This document shows, in pieces, positions 1-40,809 of a stretch of 64,000 nucleotides of DNA; within the stretch, counting starts at the first letter, position 1, and every line of letters starts with the position of its first letter. The DNA lies in the IMG/VR virus record IMGVR_UViG_3300037067_006927, positions 1 to 64,000 of that record; one strand, 5' to 3'. Position numbers and translations under genes: made by a program. This stretch comes from a virus. Taxonomy: Duplodnaviria; Caudoviricetes. Below the pieces are notes generated by a model. It saw only the letters and a list, made by a program, of their open reading frames with translations, was not told where the DNA came from and ran no database searches.

Positions 1-3
1 ACT

Positions 4-31
4 AGTATACGTATAGATTGAGCCGGGTCAA
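4..31 (-). promoter_or_regulatory. sigma70-like promoter, copy 1 of a 28-bp direct repeat (TTGACC-N16-TATACT)
   Basis: Minus strand reads TTGACC CGGCTCAATCTATACG TATACT. 27/28 identical to 554-581. Contains the palindrome TATACGTATA and points out of the window. Confidence 0.75.
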
Positions 32-35
32 GGGA

Positions 36-236
36 CTATTTCTCGCCCTCGGTCGATTTCGACGAAGCCGCGATTTTACGACGGATCCGCCGGCACTCGG
101 CCAGCGCGGAGTCCAGGACAAGGCGCTGGATCTGTCGGCCGGTGGCGACGGCGCAGTCGCGGATCGTGGCGTACTCCTCAGCGGTGCAGGCCAGGTCGAG
201 GCGGGTCCGGGGGGTGGTGGCGAGGCGGCGGGTCAT
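36..236 (-). CDS. Small ribbon-helix-helix-like DNA-binding protein (66 aa)
   Basis: Beta-strand/helix/helix pattern RLDLACTAEEYATIRDCAVATGRQIQRLVLDSAL, resembling Arc/CopG/DUF1778-type proteins. Follows the 244-546 ORF. Confidence 0.5.
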   Translation of the reverse strand: MTRRLATTPRTRLDLACTAEEYATIRDCAVATGRQIQRLVLDSALAECRRIRRKIAASSKSTEGEK

Positions 237-243
237 CAGGGTA

Positions 244-546
244 TCAAGTCTCCGAGCGCTCGCGGCGGATGGCGGCCTTGGTGGCCCTGACGCGGGCCTT
301 GAGCGCCTTGGTCATTTTGGCGACCAGCGCGGGCGGGTCGCACAGCTCGCCCACCCGCACGGTCACGATCTCGGTGGAGCCCATCGCCGACATGGTGGCG
401 TCCACGCCGTAGCTAGTGACCACCTGACCGTCGATCACGCGGTCCCAGGACCGCGGCCAAACGGAGCATCCGAGCGCCCGAAATGCAGCCATGAGCTGCG
501 CCTGGGTCATGGTTTCGGTCGCGGTGTTGTTCGTCGTCGTCGTCAT
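244..546 (-). CDS. Hypothetical protein (100 aa), probably leaderless
   Basis: ATG lies 7 nt downstream of the TATACT -10 box at 554-559. GC3-rich codons. Confidence 0.65.
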   Translation of the reverse strand: MTTTTNNTATETMTQAQLMAAFRALGCSVWPRSWDRVIDGQVVTSYGVDATMSAMGSTEIVTVRVGELCDPPALVAKMTKALKARVRATKAAIRRERSET

Positions 547-553
547 GGGTATC

Positions 554-581
554 AGTATACGTATAGATTGAGCCTGGTCAA
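554..581 (-). promoter_or_regulatory. sigma70-like promoter, copy 2 of the 28-bp repeat
   Basis: Minus strand reads TTGACC AGGCTCAATCTATACG TATACT gataccc ATG, with an A-rich tract upstream of the -35. Confidence 0.8.
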
Positions 582-646: not shown

Positions 647-1417
647 TCACGTCAGGTGACGTACCCGCGGAAACTCTTCCGCCAGTCGCTCGAACAATTC
701 CGGGTAGAACCTACGGAGCCAGGCTGCCCACCCGCGATCTGCCCCGTCGGTGTATAGCCAACCGCCATTGCGTATTGTCTCCCTTGTCTGTCCTGCCCAC
801 TCGTGATCATACAGTGGATGCCACGGTAGCTCTCGCGAAACCAAGTATGCCCACACGTCCGCGTGCGACCAGTGACCAATCGGATTGGTTACCCAATGGC
901 CGCTGTCCTTCAACTGGTACGTAAGTCCGTGGTATTTCATGCACGCTTTTCGCGCTAGCGATTCCTGCGCGCGCATCCCAAGCGCCGTTACCTCGAATCC
1001 GATCCCACGCAACCACTCCGTCGCCCGGTCCTTCTTGCGCGTCTTGATGATCCGCTGCTGAACTGACTTCGCTCTCTCATGCGGTAATCCAACATCTCGC
1101 AGCCACACCAGCGACTCTTCCAGAGTATTGATCGGTTGAAGCTCGTGGATCTGGGCGCGTTCAGCGAAGTATGCCGCCACGCATTCTCCTCCAGGTATTT
1201 CGTGCGCGCATTTGAGATGCGCCATCTGCAACGGATGCTCCAGTGTTTCCAAAGCCAGATGCCCCAGTACAGTCGAGTCCTTTCCCCAGGACATCGAAAC
1301 CACGAGACGGCCCAGGTGAGATGCGCGTACCAGTTCTCTGCGTGCCTCCTCAACTCGCGACGCGAACGATCGCGAACGCGCATGTATATCGTACTTGTGG
1401 CGGTCGGACTGCCTCAC
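647..1417 (-). CDS. cysH: CysH/PAPS-reductase-like protein of the type IV-B CRISPR-Cas locus (256 aa)
   Basis: PP-loop SMSWGKDS, GMRAQESLAR, NPIGHWSHADVWAYL and WHPLYD motifs. No C-terminal ECGLH tail. GTG start at 1417 overlaps the upstream TGA (GTGA). Sits directly downstream of the csf genes. Confidence 0.88.
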   Translation of the reverse strand: MRQSDRHKYDIHARSRSFASRVEEARRELVRASHLGRLVVSMSWGKDSTVLGHLALETLEHPLQMAHLKCAHEIPGGECVAAYFAERAQIHELQPINTLEESLVWLRDVGLPHERAKSVQQRIIKTRKKDRATEWLRGIGFEVTALGMRAQESLARKACMKYHGLTYQLKDSGHWVTNPIGHWSHADVWAYLVSRELPWHPLYDHEWAGQTRETIRNGGWLYTDGADRGWAAWLRRFYPELFERLAEEFPRVRHLT

Positions 1418-2358
1418 GCCGCCTTCTCCTTCTCTTCCGCCACGTCGCTTACCCGGATCCGCCCAAACCCGAACGCCGTCCGTCCACCCATCCCGAGCCC
1501 GCGAGCTGCGCACTCTAGCAGCCAGCGGCACGGCGCGTTGACGTCTGCCACGAAGTACCCGGAGCACCCGAGCACGGCGCCGAACTTACCACCGAGGTCT
1601 ACGCGCACCGTCTCCGTCCGCTTCTCGAGCAGTCGAAACTGGAGCCGAAGATGGTCGAGCCCGAGGCGGCGCGGCAGCCATGAGGAGATGGTGCTGCACA
1701 GGTTGCCCTCGGTCGGGTTCACCCGTGTGATCGCTCCGCCCATCGAGCGGATGGTGAGCGGTGTCAGCAGGTCGACGCGCACCGTCTGGTGACCGCGCTT
1801 GGTGACCTGCGGTGAACGCAGTCGCGTGAATGGACCGCACCGCACGAGTACGGATTGATCGGCAACCTGAGCGGGCCAGGCGTGGCCAGCGAGTCGCCGT
1901 GCAACGGCCTCGTCTGCGATCCACACCGCCCACTGTCCGCGCCCGTGGTCCATCGGCACGAGCGTGAACATCGGCATCGTCTCGTGATGCGGGATCGCTG
2001 TGAGCTCGGTCATCACACCGTGGAGCAGTCTAGCGTTCCGGAGCTCGAGCGGCCAGCGCAACGCGGGCGCGAACGCGATCGTGAATCCGCCACCGGGGAG
2101 GACGTCGGCATATGGAGGAGGGCCGAGCAGCCACGGGCGTTCCTCGCGATCGGTCTTCTTGGCGGCATACCAGGCCGCGCACCGCTCGCGGGTCTTCTTC
2201 ACCACGTCGGGTCGGCCGGCGTCCTTGTCGCGGTATCGGCAGCGCGACGAGCAGTAGGTGTGCCGCGGAGATTTGGGAGTGAAGGTGACATAGCATCCGG
2301 TCGCACCGCACGTCCGAGGAGTGGCGTCCCATCCCTTCGGAATCCCAACCGCCGTCAC
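1414..2358 (-). CDS. cas6: Cas6-like RAMP endoribonuclease with N-terminal Cys4 Zn-finger-like extension (314 aa)
   Basis: C-terminal glycine-rich loop GLGMGGRTAFGFGRIRV, internal RAMP strand VRVDLLTPLTIRS, and N-terminal CGATGC...YCSSRC. GTG start at 2358 overlaps the csf3 stop. Confidence 0.8.
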   Translation of the reverse strand: MTAVGIPKGWDATPRTCGATGCYVTFTPKSPRHTYCSSRCRYRDKDAGRPDVVKKTRERCAAWYAAKKTDREERPWLLGPPPYADVLPGGGFTIAFAPALRWPLELRNARLLHGVMTELTAIPHHETMPMFTLVPMDHGRGQWAVWIADEAVARRLAGHAWPAQVADQSVLVRCGPFTRLRSPQVTKRGHQTVRVDLLTPLTIRSMGGAITRVNPTEGNLCSTISSWLPRRLGLDHLRLQFRLLEKRTETVRVDLGGKFGAVLGCSGYFVADVNAPCRWLLECAARGLGMGGRTAFGFGRIRVSDVAEEKEKAA

Positions 2359-3089
2359 GTCGCCACCCGCACGATCGGGACCATGCAATCGGCGAGCGAT
2401 GCTCGGTGCCAATACGGCGCGCGTGTCGTGGCCTTCCGCACCGCGAACGTCCCGGGCCTCGGGTGAATGTCGGCGCCACTCGGGATCGCGCGCATCAGCC
2501 GTCCCTGTTCGAGTAGCGAGCGTTGCTGCGGGTCCGCCAGTATCTCCCAGCCCATCACGCAACCGAGGCCACCGGAGCGACAGCGGCCGATGTGGCTGAC
2601 GTCCGGCAACAACTCGGTCAGCAATGCGCGGTTGCCGACCACGTGGAAATCAACCCACGCGGCTACCAGAGTCGGGATTGGGATCTGCTCGCTCTTGTAC
2701 TCGGCCATCGCGACATTGACCTTCGCGAGTCCGTAGGATTCTGCGCGGGCGCGCTTGCGACGCATCCGCACATCCTCCTTTGCTCCCGGAGCCGGCTGCG
2801 CCCACGACGCGAGCGCGATTGGGTATCCCGCCATGTCCTGGTCAGCGATGGGGATCGGGATGGGTGTGAGCGAGTCGCGAGGAGCGTCGGCGAATGCCTC
2901 CTCCGGATCCATCCCGGAGGCGAGGGAGACTACCGCGTATTGCAGCGCTCCCTCGCACGAGACGCCATTATACGGGTCCCACGCCAGTGGCGCCGAGAGC
3001 CACGCGCGCAGCGTGAGCGGCTCCGAGCTAGCGCACGCCCACCGCTCGGCGGCGGTGAGCCACGGTGGCGAGTGGGTCACGGGTCGCAT
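2355..3089 (-). CDS. csf3: Type IV Cas5-family protein Csf3 (244 aa)
   Basis: N-terminal RAMP strand PLTLRAWLSAPLA...EGAL, glycine loop HIGRCRSGGLGCV and C-terminal TRAPYWH, all typical of Csf3. GGAG RBS before ATG 3089. Confidence 0.88.
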   Translation of the reverse strand: MRPVTHSPPWLTAAERWACASSEPLTLRAWLSAPLAWDPYNGVSCEGALQYAVVSLASGMDPEEAFADAPRDSLTPIPIPIADQDMAGYPIALASWAQPAPGAKEDVRMRRKRARAESYGLAKVNVAMAEYKSEQIPIPTLVAAWVDFHVVGNRALLTELLPDVSHIGRCRSGGLGCVMGWEILADPQQRSLLEQGRLMRAIPSGADIHPRPGTFAVRKATTRAPYWHRASLADCMVPIVRVAT

Positions 3090-3649
3090 CGCTTCTCCAG
3101 TAGTCCAGCGTCTTCGTTCGTGAAAGCGTGCTCCCCAAATAGTTCTCGAGCCGCATTGTCGTACACGCGTGCCGCTTCCTCTTCGTCAATGAAGAGCCCC
3201 AGAAACATCAGCCTGCCTCGAGCCCCGGCGGGGTCTGGGATGGTGATGTGGCACCCCCACTTTCTGTTCGCCTTATACCAAGAAACTCCCTTGAATCTGC
3301 TGGACCCGCTCCTGGACCTTGAGTTTCTACCGTTCTCTGACTTTGTTACCAGACGAAGGTTGGTAACTCGATTATCTAGTCCGTCGTGGTTCACATGGTC
3401 AACGTCACGACACCTTGTAGCACTCAATATGACGCGATGCATCAACGCTCCAGAATTCGCCCCCCTGGCATAATAGCCACTGGTGCATCTGGACCACTGG
3501 GCAACCCATAGAACTCCAGAAACAGCCTCGTAGCTTTCAGAGGATACTACTGCTGCCTGCCCCCTAGTAAGCGGGATCTCAACCGCCCCATCTTTTCGGA
3601 TTACTGGTTCCTTGCCCCTCATGCACTTGTCGCGTATTGACGGGGACAT
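3077..3649 (-). CDS. Free-standing HNH endonuclease with AP2 DNA-binding domain (homing-endonuclease type, 190 aa)
   Basis: HRVIL...DVDHVNHDGLDNRVTNLR...SENGRN (HNH) followed by SRFKGVSWYKANRKW...LGLF..EEEAARVYD (AP2). Inserted between csf2 and csf3, and visibly more AT-rich codons. Confidence 0.9.
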   Translation of the reverse strand: MSPSIRDKCMRGKEPVIRKDGAVEIPLTRGQAAVVSSESYEAVSGVLWVAQWSRCTSGYYARGANSGALMHRVILSATRCRDVDHVNHDGLDNRVTNLRLVTKSENGRNSRSRSGSSRFKGVSWYKANRKWGCHITIPDPAGARGRLMFLGLFIDEEEAARVYDNAARELFGEHAFTNEDAGLLEKRCDP

Positions 3650-3651
3650 GG

Positions 3652-5139
3652 TTAGAACGCCTCCTCAGCTGCTGCCAGTTCCTCCGCCGGAACGTCAGCA
3701 GTCCTGGTCTTCCCACGGGTCTTTCCTGATCGCAGTGGAGCCGACGGTTCGTTCTTCATCATTGCCCACTCAATCGCGGCGTCCTTGTTCTTCTCAACAT
3801 GGTCAATGTACACGGTTGGGTCCGGTAGTTCAGGTGTTCCCGGTCCTGGTTGGTATGGGTTGAACGAGATGAGCCCCATACCCCTAGCGCTTTGGGCCCC
3901 AACCACGCCATAGGATCCAAACTCTTCCAGCGCGTCAGCCAGGCAGGACGCGGTTACCGGGTTAACGCCGTCGATTGAAAATACCTGAAGTGAATGGACC
4001 ATCTGTGCACCTGCCAGCAGAAGCTCTACGTTGAAGAGCATCGCATCGCTCTTACCTTTTTCGATCATCTTCTGCGTGCGATCGATGTCTCGGTGGTCAT
4101 GGCGCGTCCCCAGGCGTAACTGGGTTAGTTCAGCCGCTTCAGGTAGTGTGGCCGCCCATTCATCCAGGTTCTTCGTCTCCACACCCATCGCCTGGTGAAC
4201 GGCCCATGCGTTCTCTTTGCACACCAGAACCGCGTCATGGATTCTGGCCCTTCCCGCCATAATCTGCGCATCGGTGCACCCGCCGAGCAGATCCCACGGA
4301 GGGCACATGGTGCGCGCCATCGTGCGGATGTCCACCCGAACCGAGCCGGTATCTGCCCCGGCCTCGACGTTGCCACCCGATAGCATAGCGTGCGCCCTCT
4401 CTGGAGGAATATCTCGAGCCCGCAGCCCGAGCAACCCGAGCCACCTGCCCATCACCATGTCGCGCAGCAGACCGCGCACCGCGTTTCCGGCCATGAACGG
4501 CACGTAAGCGTGCTGTCCAGTGAGCGCGTCGATCACGCGGTGGCGGCGGAACAGGTTGACGTTCCCGCTCTTCTCGTCGGCGCCGTGAGCCATCGGGCTC
4601 GTGAGCGTCCAGACGGTGCGGAAACTGCGCGGTTGGATCATCTGGTCCGGGAGCTTCACGCGAGCGCGCCCGCCCTTCGTCGGCTCCGGGTAGGCGTCGA
4701 ACGACTCGTACTCCGCTCGGAGCATGTCGTCGTCCAGGTCCCGCGTGCTGCTGCTGGCGAACGTGGCGAGGAAATCCGGGTTCTCGTGGATGATCAGGCG
4801 CAGGTCCCGGTAGTCGATCGCCGCCAGCGCCCGATCCCAACGCAGGCGCCCCGTCGGCATCCAGAGCTCGACGGGGCCATACTCGCCATCTCCCGTGGAC
4901 TCGATTCCGAAGCGCGTGCAGAACGCGCGGTAGAACGCCAGGCACGATCGCTCGCTCACCACGAGCGGGATCAGACTCGACCCTATTTCAGAAGAGACTG
5001 AGCTGTACCGATTTGATCCCAGCACCTCGGCCCGCATTCGGATCCGGGTCGCTCGGAGCAGATACGCGAGCAACCGCCGCGCGTTCGTGGTCGTCTTCTC
5101 GATGGTCTTCGGGTCGATCTCGTTCTCGGGTCGGTGCAT
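3652..5139 (-). CDS. csf2: Type IV Cas7-family backbone Csf2 with fused N-terminal helical, Cas11-like small-subunit domain (495 aa)
   Basis: From about aa 170: WTLTSPMAHG, VPFMAGNAVRGLLRD, CPPWDLLGG, GAQSARGMG (Csf2/Cas7). The first ~165 aa are helical and occupy the position of cas11 in type IV-B loci. GAAGGAGG RBS before ATG 5139. Confidence 0.88.
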   Translation of the reverse strand: MHRPENEIDPKTIEKTTTNARRLLAYLLRATRIRMRAEVLGSNRYSSVSSEIGSSLIPLVVSERSCLAFYRAFCTRFGIESTGDGEYGPVELWMPTGRLRWDRALAAIDYRDLRLIIHENPDFLATFASSSTRDLDDDMLRAEYESFDAYPEPTKGGRARVKLPDQMIQPRSFRTVWTLTSPMAHGADEKSGNVNLFRRHRVIDALTGQHAYVPFMAGNAVRGLLRDMVMGRWLGLLGLRARDIPPERAHAMLSGGNVEAGADTGSVRVDIRTMARTMCPPWDLLGGCTDAQIMAGRARIHDAVLVCKENAWAVHQAMGVETKNLDEWAATLPEAAELTQLRLGTRHDHRDIDRTQKMIEKGKSDAMLFNVELLLAGAQMVHSLQVFSIDGVNPVTASCLADALEEFGSYGVVGAQSARGMGLISFNPYQPGPGTPELPDPTVYIDHVEKNKDAAIEWAMMKNEPSAPLRSGKTRGKTRTADVPAEELAAAEEAF

Positions 5140-6007
5140 TGCGGGTGCCCTCCTTCGGGTCTTGTTTCTCTCGCTTCACGAGCGCCGGCATTCGCAGGAG
5201 CTCGACGAACAGCGGCCACCAGATAGCGCGGTGATGCGGCTCGATCGCATGAGTCAGGCCGCGCCACTGGCGCACGACGGCGATGGGCGCACTCGCCGGT
5301 GGCCGCATCGTCAGCAATGAAGTTGTGCATTCGTTCGAACCGACGCCACCATTGCGAAGCGCGCCGAGAATCCGGTAGCAATCGGTACGCGCTTCCGTCC
5401 ACGTCTCGACGTCCACCAGCACATCGTGCACGTCGTCCACCTGGAGTGGGTACCGGTCGCGCGACGTGGACACCTGCGCATAGATGGCCACGTGCTTGGA
5501 CTGGAGCTTGACGAGCGGGTTCGACGGCGCTGGTCGTCCCGGAGAGTAGATGCGGTGCAGATTCTGCTCTCCGCCCTTGCTCACGCCCATGTGCGCCCAC
5601 CCGGCAACGAACGGGGCCGGCGGCGGGCTGAGCAACGAGTCCAGCGTCTCGACGCGCGTTCCAGGAATCGCGTGACCTTTGCCGTCTGCGTCCTTCACGA
5701 TCCACGGCCGCGTCGGTACGTCCCAAATACCGTTCTCGCGCGCGAACCAGAGCGAGCAGCGGAGCCGGAGCGATTTGCAGGACATCAGGCACGCTGCGCA
5801 CACCTCGCGCGTCCCGAATGGCCAGGCGCGCGATGCGTTCTTGACGCTCGTGAATGAACTCGAGATCGCCTGGTCGAGCCGGTACCACGCTTGATCTCCA
5901 CAGTGAGCGCACGGGCCGCCCTTGCCCTTGCGCGGGATTGGCTCGCCGGTCGTCTCGTGCGGATCCGGTGAGCCGAGTCCGGCATAGATGATGTGGGTTG
6001 CGATCAC
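4988..6007 (-). CDS. csf1: Type IV Cas8-like large subunit Csf1 (339 aa), ending in QLSLF
   Basis: Zn-binding CAHCG and CAACLMSC motifs, PPPAPFVA and KLQSKHVAIYA segments, and position upstream of csf2. GTG start at 6007 overlaps an upstream TGA. The 3' end overlaps the first 152 nt of csf2. Confidence 0.82.
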   Translation of the reverse strand: MIATHIIYAGLGSPDPHETTGEPIPRKGKGGPCAHCGDQAWYRLDQAISSSFTSVKNASRAWPFGTREVCAACLMSCKSLRLRCSLWFARENGIWDVPTRPWIVKDADGKGHAIPGTRVETLDSLLSPPPAPFVAGWAHMGVSKGGEQNLHRIYSPGRPAPSNPLVKLQSKHVAIYAQVSTSRDRYPLQVDDVHDVLVDVETWTEARTDCYRILGALRNGGVGSNECTTSLLTMRPPASAPIAVVRQWRGLTHAIEPHHRAIWWPLFVELLRMPALVKREKQDPKEGTRNAPTRERDRPEDHREDDHERAAVARVSAPSDPDPNAGRGAGIKSVQLSLF

Positions 6008-8601
6008 TTTGCCGCCTCCGCCCCCTCCTCCGTCCTCTGCCAGCAGTACCCAGGTATCCGCGCCCCGTCGATCGGGTCCCTCCGGTAGTACCGCACCATC
6101 CGCACGAGTCCGAGCGCGGCGAGCTCGCGCAGCGTGGCCTCCTCGTCGTCGGTCGACGGGAACCGGGCGCCAGGTTGCTCCGGGCACTGGCGCAGGGTGG
6201 CGAGCTGGGTTGGGGTGAGCGTCATTGCGTGCTATCCTCCTCGTCACGTCGGTTCCAGTCGTCGAGGTAGTCGCACCGGCAATCAGCGTCGTCGCAAACC
6301 CCGCCGGCAAGGCACCCGTCGCATGGTGGAGAGCAGCATACCGGGCAGCAGTGGCACGCCAGAGCAGCCGCTCGGATGTGGGCGTGGTAGGACTCGGAGT
6401 CTGGCGGCATTGCGTCTTCCGTTTTATCCAGCGGGCGCTCGGTGGCCCAGTCGTCGCGCTCGTCTAGTACATCCTCGATGTTTCGCGCCGACTCGAACGA
6501 CGACATGCTTCCGGACTTCATGGCCTGGTTTTCGCCTTCTCGGATCGATGCCGCATGATGCGCGCCAGACGCTCGACAACGGGGCGCCACTTCTCTTTGT
6601 CGCAGTAGCGACATTGATCTGGCCCTCCGTCCATCGCCGGCTCGCCCCGGTACTCCTGCTCGAGCCGCTTGCAGTAGCAGTGCTGGGCGCGGGCCCAGAA
6701 CAGAGCCGCTCGAGCGACCCATAGCCAGGCGCGTTTCGCATCAGCGAAGCCCTTGCGCTGGACGTAGGACTCGCGATCATCTGGGGAGTTGCCCATGGTC
6801 GGCACCTCGCGCGAGGCGAAATAGCGGGGGACCCGGCGGCAGGTGACGCCGTTGGTTGGAGCGAGCTGGTGATCGGTCGGGTCAGCCACGGCGCTCCTCC
6901 CATCGCGAGCAGGACTCGTAATCGCACCACAGGGTTTCGCTTTCCGAGCAGACACCGTCGCCGGTCGTAACGTCGTCTTCGACCATCTCTCTCCAATGCT
7001 CGCACCCGTCGCACCTCCGCCGGCTGATCTGCACGAGCTCGCGGACGCGGGGTCTGCACAGTTCTCCGACTACGATTCCTCGGGCGGTGACTCCACAAAT
7101 CTGAACCATCGTCTCCATCGTGTCGTTGACGCTCTCCAGCAGTTCGCACGTTCGCGTGCACCGTGGCTCTCCGCTGCTCTCGTCGGGTTGGTGGCGGTCA
7201 GGCATTGTCGTCCCTTCCGGCACGGTTGGCGGCGTCGATCAAATCCTCCAACGCCTCCACCGGGTCGCCATTCGGTTCGAGCAACCCTGCGCGAAACAGG
7301 CGCGCGATCAGTGCTGGGCCCAGTGCTTCGGCATGGCGACGGACGTTGTTCTGGTATGCACTGGCGAACAACGCAGCAAGTTCACCGTGCTCCTCCGGCT
7401 CCCACGGTAGCCAGCAGCAACAGGCGCCCATGTCCGACTCGGTGGATCGGAGCGGCATCGTTTCTTCTAGCCCGACGAGCCCGGGATGGAATCGCTCACC
7501 CACCTTCCACCTCGATTCCCAACGCGGCGCAGAGCTCGCGCATCGTGGTCCCACCCGCCAATACCGTTCGTTCGTCGCCGCCCCAGTCGATCGCCGCCAT
7601 GCGACCGTCGACGATTTGTACCCCCCGCGTCCCCGGGCATTCCATGAGCCACGTCTCGATCTCGCGCGTGGCGGCGACATCGCGACGGGCCGCTTTCGCC
7701 TCCGTGGCCAGCTCGTGCGCCAGGCGCATGACCTCGTTGTCGTCCTGGTCAACCGACTCGGCGGTACCTGGTCCGCCAAGCGTGTCTACCACATGGCACA
7801 AGCGCGCATGGAGCATCGCGCAGTGGGACTCGAGCTCAGCGATTCGCGCGCGGGCGGAGTCCAGAGCGTTCTCCGCGGCCGCAGCCTTGGCGCCGAGCTC
7901 GCGGTACCCGTCCAGCTTCTCGTCGCACGCGCGCTCGACCATGAACTGGTAGTTCTTCTGCGCCTTGTCCCGCTCCTTCTCCACCCGAGCGAACTCCGAG
8001 GCAGTCGGGAACAGTGCGTCCAGCGGGTTCTCCCCGCCGTGCTCGAGGTAGTGCAGATACCTCTCCGTTTGCTCCGGCGTCAGAGCCTGGGAGGTCAGCA
8101 GCGGGCAGGTTTCGCACTTGTCGATGGCGCTCATGCCTTTCCCTCCAGAATCTCGTCCACCGTAAGTGCACGATCGCCCCACTCGGACCAGCGCCCACCG
8201 GCAACGTCCAGCGCTGACTGGATGCGGGCTTCGAGCTCCGCGCCGCGCGATCTGTCCTTCTCCGCCGCCGCAACCGCCAGCGTCCTCAGCAACTCTACCG
8301 CCTTGCCGAAGCTGATCTCCTCGCCGTCGAGCCGACCAAGTATCTCGCGCACGGCCTCGTAGGTGATGCCGGAATCGCGCGCCCAGGAGAACTCACGCTC
8401 AGACTGGGCGAGGTAGGAGGACAGGACGCTGGACAGCCTCTGGTTACGCGCCCGCAACCTCGCGCACGCATGGCGGGCACCGGCGCGGATGCGTAGGGCC
8501 TCGAAAGTCGCTTCGCCAGACCACCAGTGAGCAACCCTCTTCAGATGCCCTGGAAGGCAGAAGAAGTCGTGCGGGAACGGGTTTCTCCAGTGCTCGGTCA
8601 T
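6004..8601 (-). other. Run of small hypothetical early genes (about 6004-6225, 6222-6521, 6518-6796, 6882-7223, 7198-7503, 7496-8134, 8131-8601), several Cys-rich
   Basis: Consecutive minus-strand ORFs with ATGA/GTGA overlaps and GC3-biased codons. No family recognised. Confidence 0.6.
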
Positions 8602-8610
8602 AGCTCCTCC

Positions 8611-9738
8611 TCAGATCCTGAGTGGCATCACGATCGCCAGGTAGCTCCCGCCCGACGTCACCGTTCCCGGCTTGACCACGATCGGATCCAGATCGCCACC
8701 AAGCTCCAACGTAACCTCTTCGGAGTCGATCGCCAACAGCGCGTCGAGCAGATACGGTGCGTTGACTCCGATTGCATCCGGGCACTTCGCGTCACTGGCG
8801 ATCGGCACCGTGTCCGACCCTTCGCCGCTCTCCGGGCTCGATGCCTCAATCAGAATCTTGCCGCCCCCTATCTTGAGACTGATGCCCCCCGTCCGCCCGC
8901 TCGACGACACGGACACGGCGCGGATCGCATCAGCGAACGCCAGTCTCGGGACCGCGAGCGACGTCTGCGAGGACTCCGGAATCACCTGCTGATAGGGCGG
9001 GAACACCGCGTCCGCGAGCTTCACCGACGTCCGGAATCCGGCGACGTCGAAGAACGCATTTGGCATCGACAGCGTCACCGACACGATCGCTCCCGGGTCA
9101 TCCTCGATCAGGCGCTTGAGCTCCAGGATGCCGCGCCGCGGGACCAGCGCGGACAGCGCAGCGCCGACCACGTCCGTCGTCTTCGTGGCGACCGCGAGCC
9201 GATGGCCATCGGTTGCGACCATGCGCACCACGCCGCGCTCGACCTCGAATAGGGCTCCGTTCAGGTGCACGCGCGTCTCGTCGTCGGCGATGGCGGATGA
9301 CGTCTGTGCGATCAGGGTGGCCAGCGTTTCCGCCGGCAGGTCGATCGTCCTCGACTCCTCCGCCGGAGTCGGCAGCGTCGGGAACTCATCGCCCGGAATG
9401 CCCTGCACGGTGAATCGACGCGACGACCCTACCGCCTTGATCGTGGCCGCGCAGGCGTCGGTGGTCGAGATCGCAATCTCGCCGTCGGGCATCGCGCGCA
9501 GCCGCTCGAGTAGGCCACGGGCGCCGAGTGCGATCGTGCCGCCGCTCTTGACCGTGGCTGGCACACTTCCGCTTACCGCGAGTTGCAGGTCTGTTGCGGC
9601 GATGGTCAACGTGTTCGCCTCGTCGTCCGCGGTGAGGAGCACGTTTTCGAGGATCGGCATCGTGCTCTTGCGGGACGCCACCCCGACGCAACGTGATAGC
9701 AGATGGACGATCGTTCGCTTGGCTATGGTGATGATCAC
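8611..9738 (-). CDS. dnaN: DNA polymerase III beta sliding clamp, phage-encoded (375 aa)
   Basis: MPILENVLL, AATDLQL, ETRVHLNG, VATDGHRLA, FPPYQQVIP, GVNAPYLLDAL and the C-terminal VMPLRI all follow the DnaN pattern. GTG start at 9738 overlaps an upstream TGA. Confidence 0.95.
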   Translation of the reverse strand: MIITIAKRTIVHLLSRCVGVASRKSTMPILENVLLTADDEANTLTIAATDLQLAVSGSVPATVKSGGTIALGARGLLERLRAMPDGEIAISTTDACAATIKAVGSSRRFTVQGIPGDEFPTLPTPAEESRTIDLPAETLATLIAQTSSAIADDETRVHLNGALFEVERGVVRMVATDGHRLAVATKTTDVVGAALSALVPRRGILELKRLIEDDPGAIVSVTLSMPNAFFDVAGFRTSVKLADAVFPPYQQVIPESSQTSLAVPRLAFADAIRAVSVSSSGRTGGISLKIGGGKILIEASSPESGEGSDTVPIASDAKCPDAIGVNAPYLLDALLAIDSEEVTLELGGDLDPIVVKPGTVTSGGSYLAIVMPLRI

Positions 9739-21754: not shown

Positions 21755-22218
21755 CCGTCTCTCCATCACGCAAGCGCGAACTCCAGCGCGTCCGCAATCA
21801 GCGTCGCAAGCGTGCGCCAGTCCCGCGCCCGAAGACCGCTATGGCACGGATGACGGTTTCCGATCTCGTCCAGCTCCGCCTGGCCAACGACGCCGAGGAA
21901 GCCAGACACCCGCCGCCACCGCGGCCGAAGACGAGAGCCGATTGCATCGATGGTCCGCGCCCGTGTCCATGGGCCTGCCGCTATTCCCTACTCCACGAAA
22001 TCACCACTGCCGGTGGCGTGAAGACCGTGCACCCGAAGGATGCCGACGGCCACGAGCACTCATGCGTGCTCGACTACGCGGACGATCACGTTGACGGCGC
22101 GACGTGTGAGGAGATCGCGATCGAACTGAACGTGACCAGAGAGTGCGTGAGGCAGATCGAAGAGAATGCCATCCGCAAGCTGAAGCGTTACGGCGCTGCG
22201 TTGCGGGAGTGCTTATGA
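21751..22218 (+). CDS. Sigma70 region-4 HTH protein with Cys-rich N-terminal module (155 aa)
   Basis: GATCEEIAIELNVTRECVRQIEENAIRKLK (region 4) preceded by RPKTRADCIDGPRPCPWAC...SCVLD. Confidence 0.75.
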   Translation: MTVSPSRKRELQRVRNQRRKRAPVPRPKTAMARMTVSDLVQLRLANDAEEARHPPPPRPKTRADCIDGPRPCPWACRYSLLHEITTAGGVKTVHPKDADGHEHSCVLDYADDHVDGATCEEIAIELNVTRECVRQIEENAIRKLKRYGAALRECL

Positions 22219-23201
22219 GGAGTGGTGATATGGAACCATTCTGGAAGAGTCCCGATGGCGGCGCCGAACTCTGGCTTGCCGACTCGCTCGACGCCGAGCA
22301 GGTCGCGGCCGTCATGGGTGATCGGAAGGCGCAGGCGCTGATCGTCGACGCGCCATTCAGCGAGCGGACGCATACTGGGCACGAGGGCGGGCGCATGACT
22401 CCGGAGCAACTCGCCAGGTGGGCTACCCGCGACACGTCGGCGCCGCGAACTCGAGAGCGAGCCTACGCGCGCCGAGCCGGGAAGCGCGGAAGCCGGCGTA
22501 ACGGGATCGAGTACCCACCGTGGAAGGCAACCGACGTCGAAACGTTCGTGGACCTGTGGTCGCCGCTGACCGCCGGCTGGATCGTGTCGATCACTGACCA
22601 CGTGCTCTTCCCGCACTGGTCCGGATCGATGGACGCGAATGAGCGGGTGACGTTCCAGCCGCTGCCGTTCGTGGAGACTGGCTCGCGCGTCCGTATGACC
22701 GGAGATGGGCCGAGTTCGTGGACGTGCTGGATCGCAGTCGGTCGCCCGAAGGGGATGCCGTGGTCGAAATGGGGCGCGCTCCGGGGAGCCTACGTGCTGC
22801 CTGGCGAGCGGGCATTCAACGGCGTCGGTGGCTCAGAAAGAATCGTGGGTGGGAAGCCCGTTTCCGGAATGGTGATGCTCGTCCGCGACTACTCGAACCA
22901 TGGCGATCTCGTGGTCGACCCATGCTGCGGATCAGGAACCACCGGAGTCGCGGCGCGGAATCTGGGGCGGCGCTTCATCGGGATCGACTCCTGCCGCGAG
23001 CACCTCGAGATCAGTCAACGGAGGCTCGAGAATGCCAGAGAGCAGATCGTGATTCCGATCGACGAGCGGCGGATGACGCAAGGAGCTCTCTTCGCGGACG
23101 CCGCGCCAGAACCGGTGGCTCCCGCCGTCGAGGATGAGCAAGAGGACACGAGCGAAGACGAATACCCAGACGTCTCGCTGGCACGGGAATGTGGACTGTA
23201 G
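22215..23201 (+). CDS. N6-adenine/N4-cytosine DNA methyltransferase (328 aa)
   Basis: Catalytic-like IVDAPF and SAM-binding VVDPCCGSGTTG motifs in beta order. QGALF near the C-terminus. Confidence 0.82.
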   Translation: MRSGDMEPFWKSPDGGAELWLADSLDAEQVAAVMGDRKAQALIVDAPFSERTHTGHEGGRMTPEQLARWATRDTSAPRTRERAYARRAGKRGSRRNGIEYPPWKATDVETFVDLWSPLTAGWIVSITDHVLFPHWSGSMDANERVTFQPLPFVETGSRVRMTGDGPSSWTCWIAVGRPKGMPWSKWGALRGAYVLPGERAFNGVGGSERIVGGKPVSGMVMLVRDYSNHGDLVVDPCCGSGTTGVAARNLGRRFIGIDSCREHLEISQRRLENAREQIVIPIDERRMTQGALFADAAPEPVAPAVEDEQEDTSEDEYPDVSLARECGL

Positions 23202-24730: not shown

Positions 24731-25894
24731 ATGGGTGAGACAACCGGAATCAGTTGGTGCGACCATACTTTCAATCCCTGGATTGGCTGCGCGAAGGTCG
24801 CCCCCGAGTGCGCGCACTGCTACGCACAGACCTATGGAAACCGCTTCGGCGTCGAGTGGGGTGCCAACGAGGGGCGGCGGCGCACGTCGGCCAGCAACTG
24901 GCGCGATCCGCTCAAGTGGGACAAGGCAGCGAAGCGCGACGGTGTACGCCGCCGCGTCTTCTGCGCCTCGCTCGCTGACGTCTTCGATGACCACGCGGAC
25001 CTCGGCGGGTGGCGTGAGGAGCTCTTCCAACTGATCGAGCGGTGCTCCAATCTCGACTGGCTCCTGCTCACCAAGCGGCCGGAGAACATGCGGCGGATGG
25101 CTCCAGAATCCTGGCGCGAGCGCTGGCCGTCGCACGTGTGGGCGGGAACATCTGCGGGGACGCAGCGGACCGCCGACCGCGCGATCCCTCTCCTGCTACA
25201 GGTGCCGGCGGCGGTGCGGTTCGTATCGTGCGAACCGCTGCTGGGGCCGATCGACTTCCGCGGGTGGGGAAACGACGCCCCTCGTGTCGACCCATCAGCG
25301 CCATATAAATGGGCAAACTACCAATGGGAAGAGTGGATACCACAGGAATTACGAACGCTAGTTGAGGACTTCTGGCAAGAGTCCTGGGGAAGAGGACCAG
25401 CCGCTTGGCTGCGTGATCACGCGGTGCAGATGGTACCCCGTACCGGGGCGCGCGTGACGCTGAATAGCGATCGAGACGGCGGGTGGCTGACAACTGACAA
25501 GATGGCGAGTTCCGGAACCACTGGCCGTTACGTCCACATGTGGAACAACATCGGGAGGGTGGTAGCTGATGACGGAACCGTGCACTGCACGGCCGGAGGA
25601 CACGGTAGCGGGTGGTTCTCACATTGGTTGCAGAGCGACGGAAGCTACAGATCCGAGATCGACTGGGTCATCGTCGGCGGCGAATCAGGCCACAACGCGC
25701 GCCCGTGCAACGTCGAGTGGATCCGGTCGATCGTGCGGCAGTGCAAGGCGGCGGGAGTCCCTGCGTTCGTCAAGCAACTCGGCGCGAAGCACGTCACCGA
25801 GCAGGGCTTTTGCCTGTCCGATCGCGGTGCCGGCGCCGACCCCGCCGAGTGGCCCGAGGATCTCCGGATCCGGGAGTACCCCAATGTTCTTTGA
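24731..25894 (+). CDS. DUF5131 (phage Gp37/Gp68) radical-SAM-like protein with internal ~130-aa insertion (387 aa)
   Basis: TGISWCDHTFNPWIGC..VAPECAHCYA, VFCASLADVF, LLLTKRPEN, FVSCEPLLG, IDWVIVGGESG and FVKQLG motifs. Confidence 0.9.
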   Translation: MGETTGISWCDHTFNPWIGCAKVAPECAHCYAQTYGNRFGVEWGANEGRRRTSASNWRDPLKWDKAAKRDGVRRRVFCASLADVFDDHADLGGWREELFQLIERCSNLDWLLLTKRPENMRRMAPESWRERWPSHVWAGTSAGTQRTADRAIPLLLQVPAAVRFVSCEPLLGPIDFRGWGNDAPRVDPSAPYKWANYQWEEWIPQELRTLVEDFWQESWGRGPAAWLRDHAVQMVPRTGARVTLNSDRDGGWLTTDKMASSGTTGRYVHMWNNIGRVVADDGTVHCTAGGHGSGWFSHWLQSDGSYRSEIDWVIVGGESGHNARPCNVEWIRSIVRQCKAAGVPAFVKQLGAKHVTEQGFCLSDRGAGADPAEWPEDLRIREYPNVL

Positions 25895-29293: not shown

Positions 29294-30054
29294 CACCGTA
29301 CTACGACGACCAGCGCAACGGAATCACGATCTACTGCGGGGATTGCAGGGAGGTCGTTCCGACTATTCGTGCCGACGCGCTGGTGACGGATCCACCATAT
29401 GGCGTTGGACTTGGAACCGGCAAAACCATCGAGCCGAGGCGCGCAACCAGTAGTGGACATGGGCTATACCGAGGATCCTACCTGTCATTCGTTGACACCT
29501 ACGAGAACTTCGTTGCGGAGGTAGTCCCGCGCCTAAACCTGGCGCTTGACTCGACGAAGCGCGCGGCCGTGTGGACCGGACCCCACATCCACGAGCAACG
29601 AAAGCCATCGGTTATCGGCGGAGTGTACTGCCCGGCTGGACAGGGCAGGCACTCGTGTGGATTCAAGACCTTCCTTCCGGTGCTGTACTACGGGGTGTGC
29701 CCGCACGTATCTACCGGGTGCCGGACTCCTAACACGATCCAGTCATCTCTGCTCCCGGACCCATCGGCGAAGGATCACCCGTGCCCGAAGCCGACACGCT
29801 GGATGTCGTGGTTAATATCCCTTACGTGCATCAGTGAGGACGTCGTCCTCGACCCATTCATGGGCTCCGGGACGACTCTGGTAGCCGCCAAGGAACTCGG
29901 ACGGCGTGCGATCGGAATCGAGATCGAGGAGCGGTACTGTGAGATCGCGGCGAAGCGGCTGAGCCAGGAGACGCTATTCGGAGCCAGCGCACCGGCAGAA
30001 GCTCCGAAGCAACTCCGCCAGGTGTCTCTATTCGGAGAGGATACGAAGCCATGA
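29290..30054 (+). CDS. N6-adenine/N4-cytosine DNA methyltransferase (254 aa)
   Basis: LVTDPPY, HPCPKP and VLDPFMGSGTT motifs. C-terminal QETLF and QVSLF. Confidence 0.92.
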   Translation: MTPYYDDQRNGITIYCGDCREVVPTIRADALVTDPPYGVGLGTGKTIEPRRATSSGHGLYRGSYLSFVDTYENFVAEVVPRLNLALDSTKRAAVWTGPHIHEQRKPSVIGGVYCPAGQGRHSCGFKTFLPVLYYGVCPHVSTGCRTPNTIQSSLLPDPSAKDHPCPKPTRWMSWLISLTCISEDVVLDPFMGSGTTLVAAKELGRRAIGIEIEERYCEIAAKRLSQETLFGASAPAEAPKQLRQVSLFGEDTKP

Positions 30055-39576: not shown

Positions 39577-40809
39577 ATGGAAACGATCCGTGACGGCTCG
39601 GTGAACGTGACGCTGGGATCCCGGCATCCGATTCGCGAATGGACGGTGGGCGTCGAGGTGGAGGACAGCGCGCGCGAGCAACTGCGGCGCGTCGCTGACC
39701 TGCCGTTCGTGTTCAAGCACGTTGCCGTGATGCCCGACGCGCACACCGGCATCGGGTCAACGGTCGGAACGGTGATCCCGACGGTCGGGGCAGTGGTGCC
39801 CGCTTGCGTTGGTAGCGACGTTGGTTGCGGTATGACGGCCACGAAGACCACGCTGTCGATCGCCGACTTCCCGGCGGACCGCGCCGAGGTTCGCGCTTGT
39901 CTGGAGCGAGCCATCCCGCACGGTCGCACCGACAACGGCGGACCCAACGACCGCGGCGCATGGGGCACCGTGCCGGACGCGGTGGCTGACCACTGGTCAT
40001 CGCTGTCGGACGGATACGAGGACATCTGCGAGAGCAACCCGAAGCTCAGGACGCGCCAGCCGCCGCAGAAGCAGCTCGGAACGCTGGGCACCGGCAATCA
40101 CTTCATCGAGGTGTGCGCCGACACGGACGGAGCAATCTGGGTGATGCTGCACTCGGGATCGCGCGGAGTCGGCGGGAGGATCGGGTCGCACTTCACCGGG
40201 TTGGCCAAAGAGGAATGCGCCCGCTGGTTCGTTGACCTTCCGGATCCGAACCTGGCTTACTTCCCCGAGGGCACGCCGTCCTTCGACGAGTACCTGCAAG
40301 CGGTGCGATGGGCGCAGCAGTACGCGCTGACGAATCGACGGCTGATGATGGACGCTGCGCTGGGAACGCTGGAGCGGATCGTCGGGCGAGGGATCCGCAG
40401 TGGTGAGACGATCGACTGCCACCACAACTACATCGCGCGCGAGCATCACTTCGGCCGCGACGTACTGGTGACACGCAAGGGTGCGATCCGAGCACGGGCG
40501 GGAGACGTCGGCATAATTCCGGGGTCAATGGGATCGCGGTCGTTCATCGTGCGCGGACTCGGAAACGCGGATTCATTCTGCTCGGCCTCGCACGGAGCCG
40601 GTCGTCGCATGTCGCGGACGCAGGCCGCGAAGACGTTCACGGTCGAGGACCACGCGGCGGCTGTGGCTGGCGTCGAGTGCCGGATGGACTCCAGCATTCT
40701 GGACGAGACACCGGGAGCGTACAAGGAGATCGGTGCCGTGATGGCGGCGCAGAAGGACATTGTCGAAGTGGTGGCGGAGCTGAAGCAGATCATTTGTGTG
40801 AAGGGGTAG
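39577..40809 (+). CDS. rtcB: RtcB RNA 3'-phosphate/cyclic-phosphate ligase (410 aa)
   Basis: MPDAH.G.G..VG, VG.DVGCGM, GTLGTGNHFIE, MLHSGSRG, HHNY, RKGA, PGSMG, SHGAGR and DETPGAYK motifs. GGAGGAG RBS. Confidence 0.97.
   Translation: METIRDGSVNVTLGSRHPIREWTVGVEVEDSAREQLRRVADLPFVFKHVAVMPDAHTGIGSTVGTVIPTVGAVVPACVGSDVGCGMTATKTTLSIADFPADRAEVRACLERAIPHGRTDNGGPNDRGAWGTVPDAVADHWSSLSDGYEDICESNPKLRTRQPPQKQLGTLGTGNHFIEVCADTDGAIWVMLHSGSRGVGGRIGSHFTGLAKEECARWFVDLPDPNLAYFPEGTPSFDEYLQAVRWAQQYALTNRRLMMDAALGTLERIVGRGIRSGETIDCHHNYIAREHHFGRDVLVTRKGAIRARAGDVGIIPGSMGSRSFIVRGLGNADSFCSASHGAGRRMSRTQAAKTFTVEDHAAAVAGVECRMDSSILDETPGAYKEIGAVMAAQKDIVEVVAELKQIICVKG

Follow-up and report, generated by a model that had tools for sequence, protein, structure and literature searches.

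The type IV-B system of the Mycobacterium sp. JS623 megaplasmid (7JHY; PMC7937560) comprises Csf1, Cas11, Csf2, Csf3 and a CysH-like PP-loop enzyme, and is devoid of an array, adaptation genes, helicase and nuclease. The solved IV-B complex binds heterogeneous RNA without any Cas6 (PMC7937560). Pinilla-Redondo et al. (2020, PMC7038947) described Cas6 in IV-B loci as 'rare exceptions: only 12 instances', and IV-B carried by viruses has been published for Fuxiviridae (PMC10541130); in both papers the Cas6 of IV-B is mentioned at most, without analysis. The operon described here is carried by a tailed phage rather than by a plasmid. It has the same components as the JS623 system and shares with it the lack of array, adaptation genes, helicase and nuclease. 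It differs from JS623 in that Cas11 is fused to Csf2, a zinc-ribbon Cas6 gene lies between csf3 and cysH, and Csf1 has a greater length and a clamp-type motif at its end. Compared by description only, the IV-B loci with Cas6 of PMC7038947 are alike in combining the IV-B core with a Cas6. The Fuxivirus locus likewise places the IV-B core on a virus genome, but there a mini-array is present and Cas6 is absent (PMC10541130). The Cas6, the fused small subunit and the clamp-type Csf1 motif of the phage operon offer handles for testing the unexplained role of IV-B.

Layout and classification of the operon

The stretch analysed (the window, 64,000 nucleotides) belongs to a complete phage record of 90,120 bp (CheckV 100%). 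The carrier is a novel sheathed-tail phage of the lytic tailed type. On the minus strand, positions 647-6007 hold csf1, cas11::csf2, an HNH gene, csf3, a Cas6-fold gene and a cysH-like gene, all closely coupled, and the six placements and assignments of the original prediction held in profile and structure tests. The features of the operon and its borders are:

554..581, minus strand, promoter-like box just 3' of cysH, with a near-identical copy at 4-31
647-1417, minus strand, CysH-like PP-loop enzyme (CasCysH type), 256 aa (PF01507 E 3e-17)
1414-2358, minus strand, Cas6-fold gene (AlphaFold2 model, Foldseek, VIA)
2355-3089, minus strand, csf3 (type IV Cas5), 244 aa (PADLOC typeIV_Cas5 E 8.9e-26; TIGR03116 E 2e-7)
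3077-3649, minus strand, free-standing HNH_3 + AP2 homing endonuclease between csf2 and csf3 (PF13392, PF00847)
3652-5139, minus strand, cas11::csf2 fusion, 495 aa (profile and structure matches)
3652..4626, minus strand, Csf2 (type IV Cas7) domain, fusion residues 172-495 (PADLOC typeIV_Cas7, TIGR03115, 7JHY Csf2)
4615..5139, minus strand, Cas11 small-subunit domain, fusion residues 1-175 (fold match to 7jhy_h)
4988-6007, minus strand, csf1, type IV large subunit, 339 aa (PADLOC typeIV_Cas8 E 1.7e-9, Csf1 E 8e-5)
6004..6225, minus strand, 73-aa ORF, stop overlapping the csf1 start (GTGA)

GTGA overlaps were read from the sequence at three junctions (orf73/csf1, csf3/cas6 and cas6/cysH). The HNH gene and csf3 overlap by 13 nt, csf2 and the HNH gene are 2 nt apart, and csf1 overlaps cas11-csf2 by 152 nt. 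The 73-aa ORF, which had no match in Pfam, PHROG or PADLOC, is possibly a small regulator. At the 3' end, the limit of the operon is marked by the promoter-like box. Two further minus-strand ORFs (244-546 and 36-236) follow past cysH, each behind its own promoter-like box; contrary to the original prediction, the operon does not strictly close the leftward arm.

The Cas11 part of the fusion is recognized by its fold. The AlphaFold2 model of the domain (pLDDT 85) has as its top match in the wide VIA-align search 7jhy_h (Z 8.7, rmsd 3.7, 119 aligned residues; runner-up Z 3.8), a chain of 143 residues from the IV-B complex 7JHY, which we take to be its Cas11. Neither a sequence-level nor a Foldseek match was obtained for this domain. 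The Csf2 domain matches PADLOC typeIV_Cas7 over residues 172-458 (E 1.8e-44), TIGR03115 and the Csf2 of PDB 7JHY (E 4e-8). The predicted cas11::csf2 fusion held up. Fusions of this type occur in 26 clusters (436-528 aa), and the fusion means that small and backbone subunits are produced 1:1. In type III-E Cas7-11 (gRAMP), the small subunit is also covalently joined to the backbone RAMP subunit. The phage fusion, by contrast, has one Cas11 per Csf2, presumably still polymerizes and is not a single-protein effector.

The HNH gene is a selfish homing endonuclease which landed between csf2 and csf3. It matches phrog_99 (E 7e-32) and bears the PADLOC label HEase; its GC3 is 0.58, versus 0.75-0.80 in the neighbouring genes, and in the closest relatives, L026 and L027, it is missing and csf2 abuts csf3. 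Of the coupled run proposed originally, csf1-cas11::csf2-csf3-cas6-cysH therefore stands, without the HNH gene as a member. An HNH-armed Cascade such as IV-A2 or I-F HNH, in which the HNH domain is fused to an effector subunit or conserved together with it, was rejected, the gene being free-standing, fitted with an AP2 domain, low in GC and missing from the closest relatives.

The inserted endonuclease, together with the absence of array and adaptation genes, could point to a decaying, non-functional CRISPR-Cas remnant. However, every reading frame is intact and translationally coupled, the insertion falls exactly between genes, and the gene set is kept across many distant loci. Synonymous changes also exceed non-synonymous ones relative to L027 in csf1, cas11-csf2, csf3 and cas6, and we consider a remnant very improbable. 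The substitution pattern indicates that the operon is kept by purifying selection.

The presence of a Cas6 and the legacy label 'CAS-IV-A' of the top-scoring PADLOC Csf2 model could also suggest an ordinary type IV-A (or IV-D) system with array and helicase elsewhere. For this record that reading is refuted and its chances are negligible. No DEAD_2/DinG, Cas1 or Cas2 was found in the whole 90,120-bp record by searches which gave matches for each in control genomes. No CRISPR array was found in the whole record by k-mer scan, TRF, a repeat finder or a mini-array finder, the last of which detected the arrays of the control loci L022 and L024. The original prediction had reported cas1, cas2, DinG and array to be absent from the 64 kb, had asked for array finders to be run on the complete phage and had named an array and DinG just outside the window as evidence against itself; the absence extends to the complete record. 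Furthermore, the Cas11 domain and the cysH-like gene are marks of IV-B.

Csf2, Csf3, Csf1, Cas11 (by fold only) and an adjacent cysH-like gene are thus present, and array, helicase and adaptation genes are not. The lack of Cas6, a typical though not strict trait of IV-B, does not apply here, since this operon has a Cas6-fold gene that the branch conserves; for this reason we term the operon a IV-B variant and not a standard member. We are highly confident that it is a genuine array-less type IV-B effector operon on a phage, representing a distinct conserved IV-B branch composed of a long-tailed Csf1 with a clamp-type motif, Cas11 (here fused to Csf2), Csf3, a zinc-ribbon Cas6 and a PP-loop CysH-like enzyme.

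The Cas6-like protein

Two regions are distinguished in this protein:

2134..2358, minus strand, Cys4 zinc ribbon and basic helices, residues 1-75 (conserved cysteines)
1444..2103, minus strand, Cas6 double-RRM core, residues 86-305 (C-terminal glycine-rich loop GLGxGGRTAFGFGR)

The AlphaFold2 model (pLDDT 92.7) has 69 Foldseek matches in the PDB at E<=1e-3, and all among the matches listed are Cas6-family chains (Cas6, Cas6b, Cse3/Cas6e, Cas6-RT-Cas1 and chains of CAST and III-D complexes). With the Cas6 endoribonucleases of 6FJW (S. thermophilus), 4C8Y (T. thermophilus TTHA0078) and 6NJY (type IV), it shares the double RRM over the full length of those enzymes, with VIA Z scores of 17.5, 16.6 and 16.2, respectively. 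The original prediction, staked on a RAMP/Cas6 fold of the 1414-2358 product, was borne out, as this product does take the Cas6 fold. Also shared with these enzymes are the C-terminal glycine-rich loop and a conserved histidine in the N-terminal RRM. Unlike them, the phage protein is extended at the N-terminus by about 85 residues that include a Cys4 zinc ribbon, and it has no cognate repeat array; its sequence similarity is confined to the C-terminal RRM. Matches to PADLOC Cas6 models are weak (E 1e-3 to 6e-3), and a Pfam search gave no match at 0.01. PF10040 matches 32 of 38 homologues (best E 2e-8). An hhalign comparison with array-linked Cas6 reached a probability of 96.4%, the alignment being limited to the C-terminal RRM.

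Conservation among the 38 homologues extends to both regions. The zinc-ribbon cysteines C17, C22, C36 and C40 are conserved in at least 90%; they fall outside the segment (model range 86-305) that can be aligned to solved Cas6 structures. The glycine-rich loop G289-R300 is invariant or nearly so. His113 is present in 38/38 homologues and His124 in at least 90%. The N-terminal RRM is the usual place of Cas6 active-site histidines. In the VIA alignment (model 87..305 against TTHA0078 Cas6 1..238), His124 would fall, going by the aligned ranges only, within a residue or two of TTHA0078 His37, which is mutated in PDB entry 4c97. The family is large, with 277 matching cluster representatives at 50% identity, and wherever a sampled locus has enough flank, the gene is coupled to csf2, csf3 or cysH-like genes; two gene orders occur. 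No other gene of the operon is as well conserved (77-79% identity to L026/L027), and it shows 113 synonymous and 67 non-synonymous codon differences from L027.

Searches of the phage record and 19 related loci found no CRISPR repeat, whether in a mini-array or solitary. Apart from one tRNA, no Rfam RNA was detected in the window and nine related loci, and neither L026 nor L027 retains the hairpins located within the operon; the repeat, Rfam and hairpin searches thus yielded no candidate substrate RNA. The missing repeat lowers the case for a crRNA-processing Cas6, not that for a Cas6-fold RNA-binding subunit. Without a repeat or conserved hairpin to cut, the protein might be a non-catalytic structural subunit which cuts nothing, either binding and capping RNA or the Csf filament, or acting through its zinc ribbon as a nucleic-acid anchor or regulator. 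Cas6 proteins often remain bound as structural caps in class 1 complexes. The sequence alignment restricted to the C-terminal RRM and the added zinc ribbon, absent from canonical Cas6, fit such a role. The invariant His113 and nearly invariant His124 in the N-terminal RRM and the full conservation of the glycine-rich loop speak against it, and we hold a purely structural subunit to be rather unlikely.

The Csf1 tail and the sliding clamp

The relevant features are:

4988..5139, minus strand, dual-frame overlap of csf1 tail and Cas11 N-terminus, 152 nt (two reading frames)
4991..5005, minus strand, QLSLF, last five csf1 codons, matching the bacterial beta-clamp-binding consensus QL[SD]LF
8611..9738, minus strand, phage DNA polymerase III beta sliding clamp (PF00712, PF02767, PF02768)

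Csf1 has a CxxC...CxxC zinc finger at the N-terminus, with C33, C36, C70 and C73 invariant in 16 homologues, and a low-complexity tail at the C-terminus. Among the 39 homologue clusters found, 10 end in the strict clamp-type motif, and a relaxed version is matched by about 16-18; variants of it thus reach distant Csf1 homologues, the Csf1 of L007 terminates in QLSLFS, and a clamp-type tail was looked for in the JS623 plasmid Csf1 and is absent. The motif is only five residues long. An identical csf1/cas11 overlap is found in L026 and L027. Substitutions relative to L027 within it are distributed as 6/6/21 over the cas11-frame codon positions, and the csf1 stop position is conserved despite the overlap. 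The phage's own clamp gene is located 2.6 kb upstream of csf1, and L007-L009 likewise carry one (39% identity), roughly 0.9 kb upstream of their cas6-like gene. A clamp gene is therefore found near the module in two phage lineages. The beta sliding clamp is proposed as the candidate partner of the Csf1 tail.

Neither this tail nor the conserved CysH-like enzyme is accounted for if the module acts by hijacking or titrating out the host's CRISPR RNA, with the Cas6-like protein processing pre-crRNA, the Csf proteins loading or sequestering it, and the guides being re-aimed or the module serving as an anti-CRISPR. The idea has been published for IV-B (PMC7038947, PMC8175902), and a phage Cas6 would provide the processing step otherwise missing from IV-B. 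However, IV-B is negatively correlated with other CRISPR systems, and the sponge idea has been called unlikely (PMC7038947). We regard such hijacking as improbable.

Proposed mechanism and the adjacent enzyme

The original prediction had proposed that the Cas6 processes some stem-loop RNA and that the complex may serve in counter-defence or DNA modification. Our preferred explanation, a IV-B variant with its own Cas6-like subunit, is given as a whole a probability of roughly 0.55. The mechanism within it is advanced tentatively. The Cas6 subunit would recognize, and probably cut, a structured RNA other than a CRISPR repeat and then remain as its 3' cap. Csf3 and Csf1 would form the cap at the opposite end, with Cas11-Csf2 units polymerizing on the RNA in the manner of the solved IV-B filament. 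The Csf1 tail would dock the particle on the beta sliding clamp of the phage or the host, placing it on replicating DNA. The CysH-like enzyme, or another enzyme in the corresponding slot of some relatives, may modify the particle-held nucleic acid using ATP. The analysis shows the gene identities, the folds, the synteny, the selection and the lack of an array, whereas RNA cleavage, clamp binding and the target of the enzyme are steps that we infer.

The CysH-like protein contains the SWGKDS motif, lacks the C-terminal catalytic cysteine motif, and aligns end to end with the cysH-like proteins of JS623, with which it shares the PP-loop, and of Frondihabitans. It is no more than 31-33% identical to its L026/L027 counterparts, and in one sampled locus a radical-SAM gene takes the place of cysH, suggesting that the enzyme slot next to the module is swappable.

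Operon structure and phage setting

The type IV-B module is a compact minus-strand operon, read here from the sequence, in which three of the junctions are GTGA overlaps.

Genes of the type IV-B operon in the window
6004-6225, minus strand, 73-aa ORF, no family match
4988-6007, minus strand, csf1 (large subunit), PADLOC Csf1 E 1.7e-9
3652-5139, minus strand, cas11::csf2 fusion of 495 aa (small subunit and Cas7), PADLOC Csf2 E 1.8e-44, 7JHY Csf2 E 4e-8
3077-3649, minus strand, HNH gene, HNH_3 and AP2 domains
2355-3089, minus strand, csf3 (Cas5), PADLOC Csf3 E 8.9e-26
1414-2358, minus strand, cas6-like gene, Cas6 fold (model) and homologue profile matches
647-1417, minus strand, cysH-like gene, PF01507 E 3e-17

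Assignment of Csf1 and Csf3 is settled by the PADLOC matches; the Pfam search returned no match for either protein, even for relatives which carry PF27781/PF27782 in precomputed tables. Array and repeat scans found no CRISPR array in the whole 90,120-bp record, and the mini-array finder among them detected the arrays of two control loci. Likewise, no DinG-type helicase, Cas1 or Cas2 is encoded in the whole record, with control genomes matched in each search. The original prediction that the module lacks an array, cas1, cas2 and DinG is thus confirmed for the complete record, and an array and DinG located just outside the window are excluded.

The record is 100% complete according to CheckV and has a G+C content of ~65%. 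Genes for the portal, head protease, major head protein, tail sheath and baseplate hub show that this is a tailed phage whose tail is contractile. The genome also encodes a primase, a DnaB-type helicase, an RtcB ligase, a beta sliding clamp and a PD-(D/E)XK nuclease. The portal shares no more than 29% identity with its counterparts in cultured Mu-like phages, and the search for the IV-B locus among cultured or deposited phages gave no match. Genes run leftward over ~18 kb towards base 1, and rightward from ~18.6 kb.

The zinc-ribbon Cas6-like family

The 314-aa product of 1414-2358 was modelled from 38 homologues with a pLDDT of 92.7. Foldseek against the PDB gave 69 matches at E<=0.001, all of those listed being Cas6-family chains. 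In VIA-align, model residues 86-305 span essentially the entire length of each Cas6 target, with Z scores of 17.5 for Streptococcus thermophilus Cas6, 16.6 for Thermus thermophilus TTHA0078 and 16.2 for a type IV Cas6. The Cas6 fold anticipated for this product is therefore borne out. The C-terminal glycine-rich loop is invariant in the 38 homologues, 32 of which match Pfam CRISPR_Cas6, and the C-terminal RRM aligns with array-linked Cas6 proteins at 96.4% probability. Residues 1-85 are an extra part composed of a Cys4 zinc ribbon, with all four cysteines conserved, and basic helices. His113 is invariant and His124 nearly invariant among the homologues. Judging by the aligned ranges rather than by a residue-level alignment, His124 probably falls within one or two residues of TTHA0078 His37, the residue mutated in PDB 4c97. 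Mapping of the active site by sequence was unsuccessful, as neither the family profile nor an array-linked Cas6 matched any solved Cas6. Some members of the family are long, 600-780 aa, with extra N- or C-terminal parts (L010:7464-9338 in a related locus, and family proteins P0133, P0140, P0150, P0168, P0175 and P0198); these parts, searched for clues from fusions, have no Cas, PADLOC or Pfam family match.

An exhaustive profile-free search matched the Cas6-like protein to 277 representatives at 50% identity. In all loci with enough flank, the cas6-like gene is adjoined by csf2 and csf3, and in most cases also by a cysH-like gene, in either of two orders, csf1-csf2-csf3-cas6-cysH or cas6-csf1-csf2-csf3-cysH. 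The family is carried by ten viral contigs and by metagenome-assembled genomes labelled Sorangium, Deltaproteobacteria, Acidobacteria and Bacteroidetes. A search in plasmids gave no match to the Cas6-like protein. Compared with the two closest relative loci, L026 and L027, cas6-like is the best conserved gene of the operon (77-79% identity), with synonymous change in excess. It is absent from the canonical IV-B loci of Mycobacterium sp. JS623, where the locus is on a megaplasmid, and Frondihabitans.

The array, Rfam and hairpin searches found no candidate substrate RNA in or beside the operon. Mini-arrays are absent from the whole record and the related loci, with 8-10 kb flanks covered for phages with zinc-ribbon Cas6. 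Rfam detected nothing in the window and nine related loci beyond one tRNA in L026, 2.8 kb away, and none of the four in-operon hairpins is conserved in L026 or L027. Elsewhere in the window, an RtcB RNA ligase is encoded at 39577-40809 on the plus strand (phrog_1075, E 2e-136). RtcB joins 2',3'-cyclic-phosphate and 5'-OH ends, which are of the type that Cas6 cleavage produces; no linkage of RtcB to the module was found in the related loci.

The Cas11-Csf2 fusion and the Csf1 tail

Residues 1-175 of the 495-aa protein fold into a mainly helical domain (model pLDDT 85). Among 48,161 representative chains, its sole strong match is in the type IV-B complex 7JHY, to a chain of 143 residues that we take to be Cas11 (Z 8.7 over 119 aligned residues); the next-best chain has a Z of 3.8. 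Among the methods tried, only the wide VIA-align search made this match visible. Sequence profiles did not match the N-terminal extension to stand-alone Cas11 proteins, Foldseek with the N-terminal domain had no PDB match at E<=0.001, and the ESM Atlas search gave no usable match. The predicted cas11::csf2 fusion is accordingly upheld by the fold together with the Csf2 profile match. The fused form is kept in 26 clusters, and more distant relatives have a separate gene of 125-155 aa ahead of csf2.

The HNH gene belongs by family matches to homing endonucleases, and its GC3 is 0.58 versus 0.75-0.80 in the neighbouring genes. In L026 and L027 the gene is missing and csf2 and csf3 abut. For these reasons a role as effector nuclease was rejected, and the HNH gene is an insertion. 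Of the run csf1 - cas11::csf2 - HNH - csf3 - cas6-like - cysH-like originally proposed, the coupled csf, cas6 and cysH genes stand, but HNH does not belong to it as a component.

The csf1 and cas11 genes overlap by 152 nt (4988-5139), and the same overlap is found in L026 and L027, that is, in three phages. Substitutions in the overlap track cas11 (6/6/21 over the codon positions of its frame), and it is this frame that is under selection. The csf1 frame specifies a low-complexity tail with little conservation, of which the terminal QLSLF or QLRLF (QLxLF) alone is kept. QLSLF-type sequences are the bacterial beta-clamp-binding consensus. Distant members of the branch have Csf1 C-termini such as QLGLF, QGSLF, QQSLF, QISLF, QLSLFS and QLVLF, among others, whereas JS623 Csf1 has no clamp-type tail. 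The phage's own clamp gene lies 2.6 kb upstream, and in a second phage lineage (loci L007-L009) a clamp gene is also directly upstream of the module. In the related-locus search, the window clamp had no close relative in viral contigs. Csf1 looks like a large subunit suited to docking on the sliding clamp, its candidate partner; our literature search found no paper describing a clamp-type motif on Csf1.

The enzyme slot and a possible function

The cysH-like product and the CysH-like proteins of the JS623 and Frondihabitans IV-B loci can be aligned over their full lengths. The PP-loop SWGKDS is present in the product and a C-terminal catalytic cysteine motif is missing, as in CasCysH (PMC8175902). 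Its gene (647-1417) is only 31-33% identical to the counterparts L026:11056-11862 and L027:9459-10256, against 66-79% for the remaining four genes. This low identity, together with a lower GC3 of 0.65, suggests that the enzyme gene has been replaced by exchange. At one distant locus, that of family protein P0121, the place of cysH is taken by a radical-SAM gene. In L027, a close relative, cas6 is separated from the cysH-like gene by genes for a DndC-like PAPS-reductase (with DUF3440) and a ParB_N protein (L027:7796-9447). In the related locus L005, a gene for a Ro60/TROVE and vWA protein (L005:10211-11857), another RNA-binding protein beside a IV-B module, is directly downstream of the module and is followed by an integrase.

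Type IV-B has already been described on plasmids, prophages, lytic phages and archaeal viruses (PMC7038947, PMC10541130), and 12 Cas6-bearing IV-B loci are listed with PMC7038947. Among CRISPR-Cas subtypes, type IV-B is the only one for which both function and complete architecture were still called unclear in 2026 (PMC13676074). Apparently new, as not found in print, are a Cas6 that forms a zinc-ribbon family of its own and is fixed in a single branch of IV-B, the fusion of Cas11 to Csf2 in the window's system and the clamp-type tail on Csf1 of its branch. A speculative reading, to which we give roughly one chance in five, is that the branch is a CRISPR-independent ribonucleoprotein tethered to the replisome. 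The dedicated zinc-ribbon Cas6 would cut a non-CRISPR transcript into a scaffold or guide RNA, the particle would dock via Csf1 on the sliding clamp behind the fork, and the exchangeable enzyme in the last slot (CysH-like here, radical SAM and others in relatives) would chemically mark phage or host nucleic acid. In that case, Cas6 would represent a route of guide biogenesis with no need of repeats. The main value of the finding is that the IV-B question becomes experimentally approachable, since the branch offers three independent handles, namely, its own Cas6, a fixed 1:1 Cas11-Csf2 fusion and a clamp-type large subunit. The Cas6 subunit should mark the RNA acted on, making the bound RNA identifiable, the clamp gives a route to testing the cellular site of action, and the enzyme slot, different among relatives, a route to testing the chemistry.

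The rightward early region of the phage carries genes for a DNA methylase (N6_N4_Mtase; 22143-23201, plus strand) and a DUF5131 protein (24731-25894, plus strand); the phage is thus also equipped with conventional DNA-modification genes. A 33-nt imperfect direct repeat (29951-29983 and 30005-30037; 79% identity) is located at a gene boundary. Its 54-nt spacing is too short for a CRISPR unit, and it may be regulatory. Finally, two near-identical 28-nt promoter-like boxes are present on the minus strand, one directly after cysH (554-581) and the other at the left end of the record (4-31). Their layout, TTGACC, 16 nt and TATACT, includes the palindrome TATACGTATA, and they may constitute a phage-specific promoter/operator pair.
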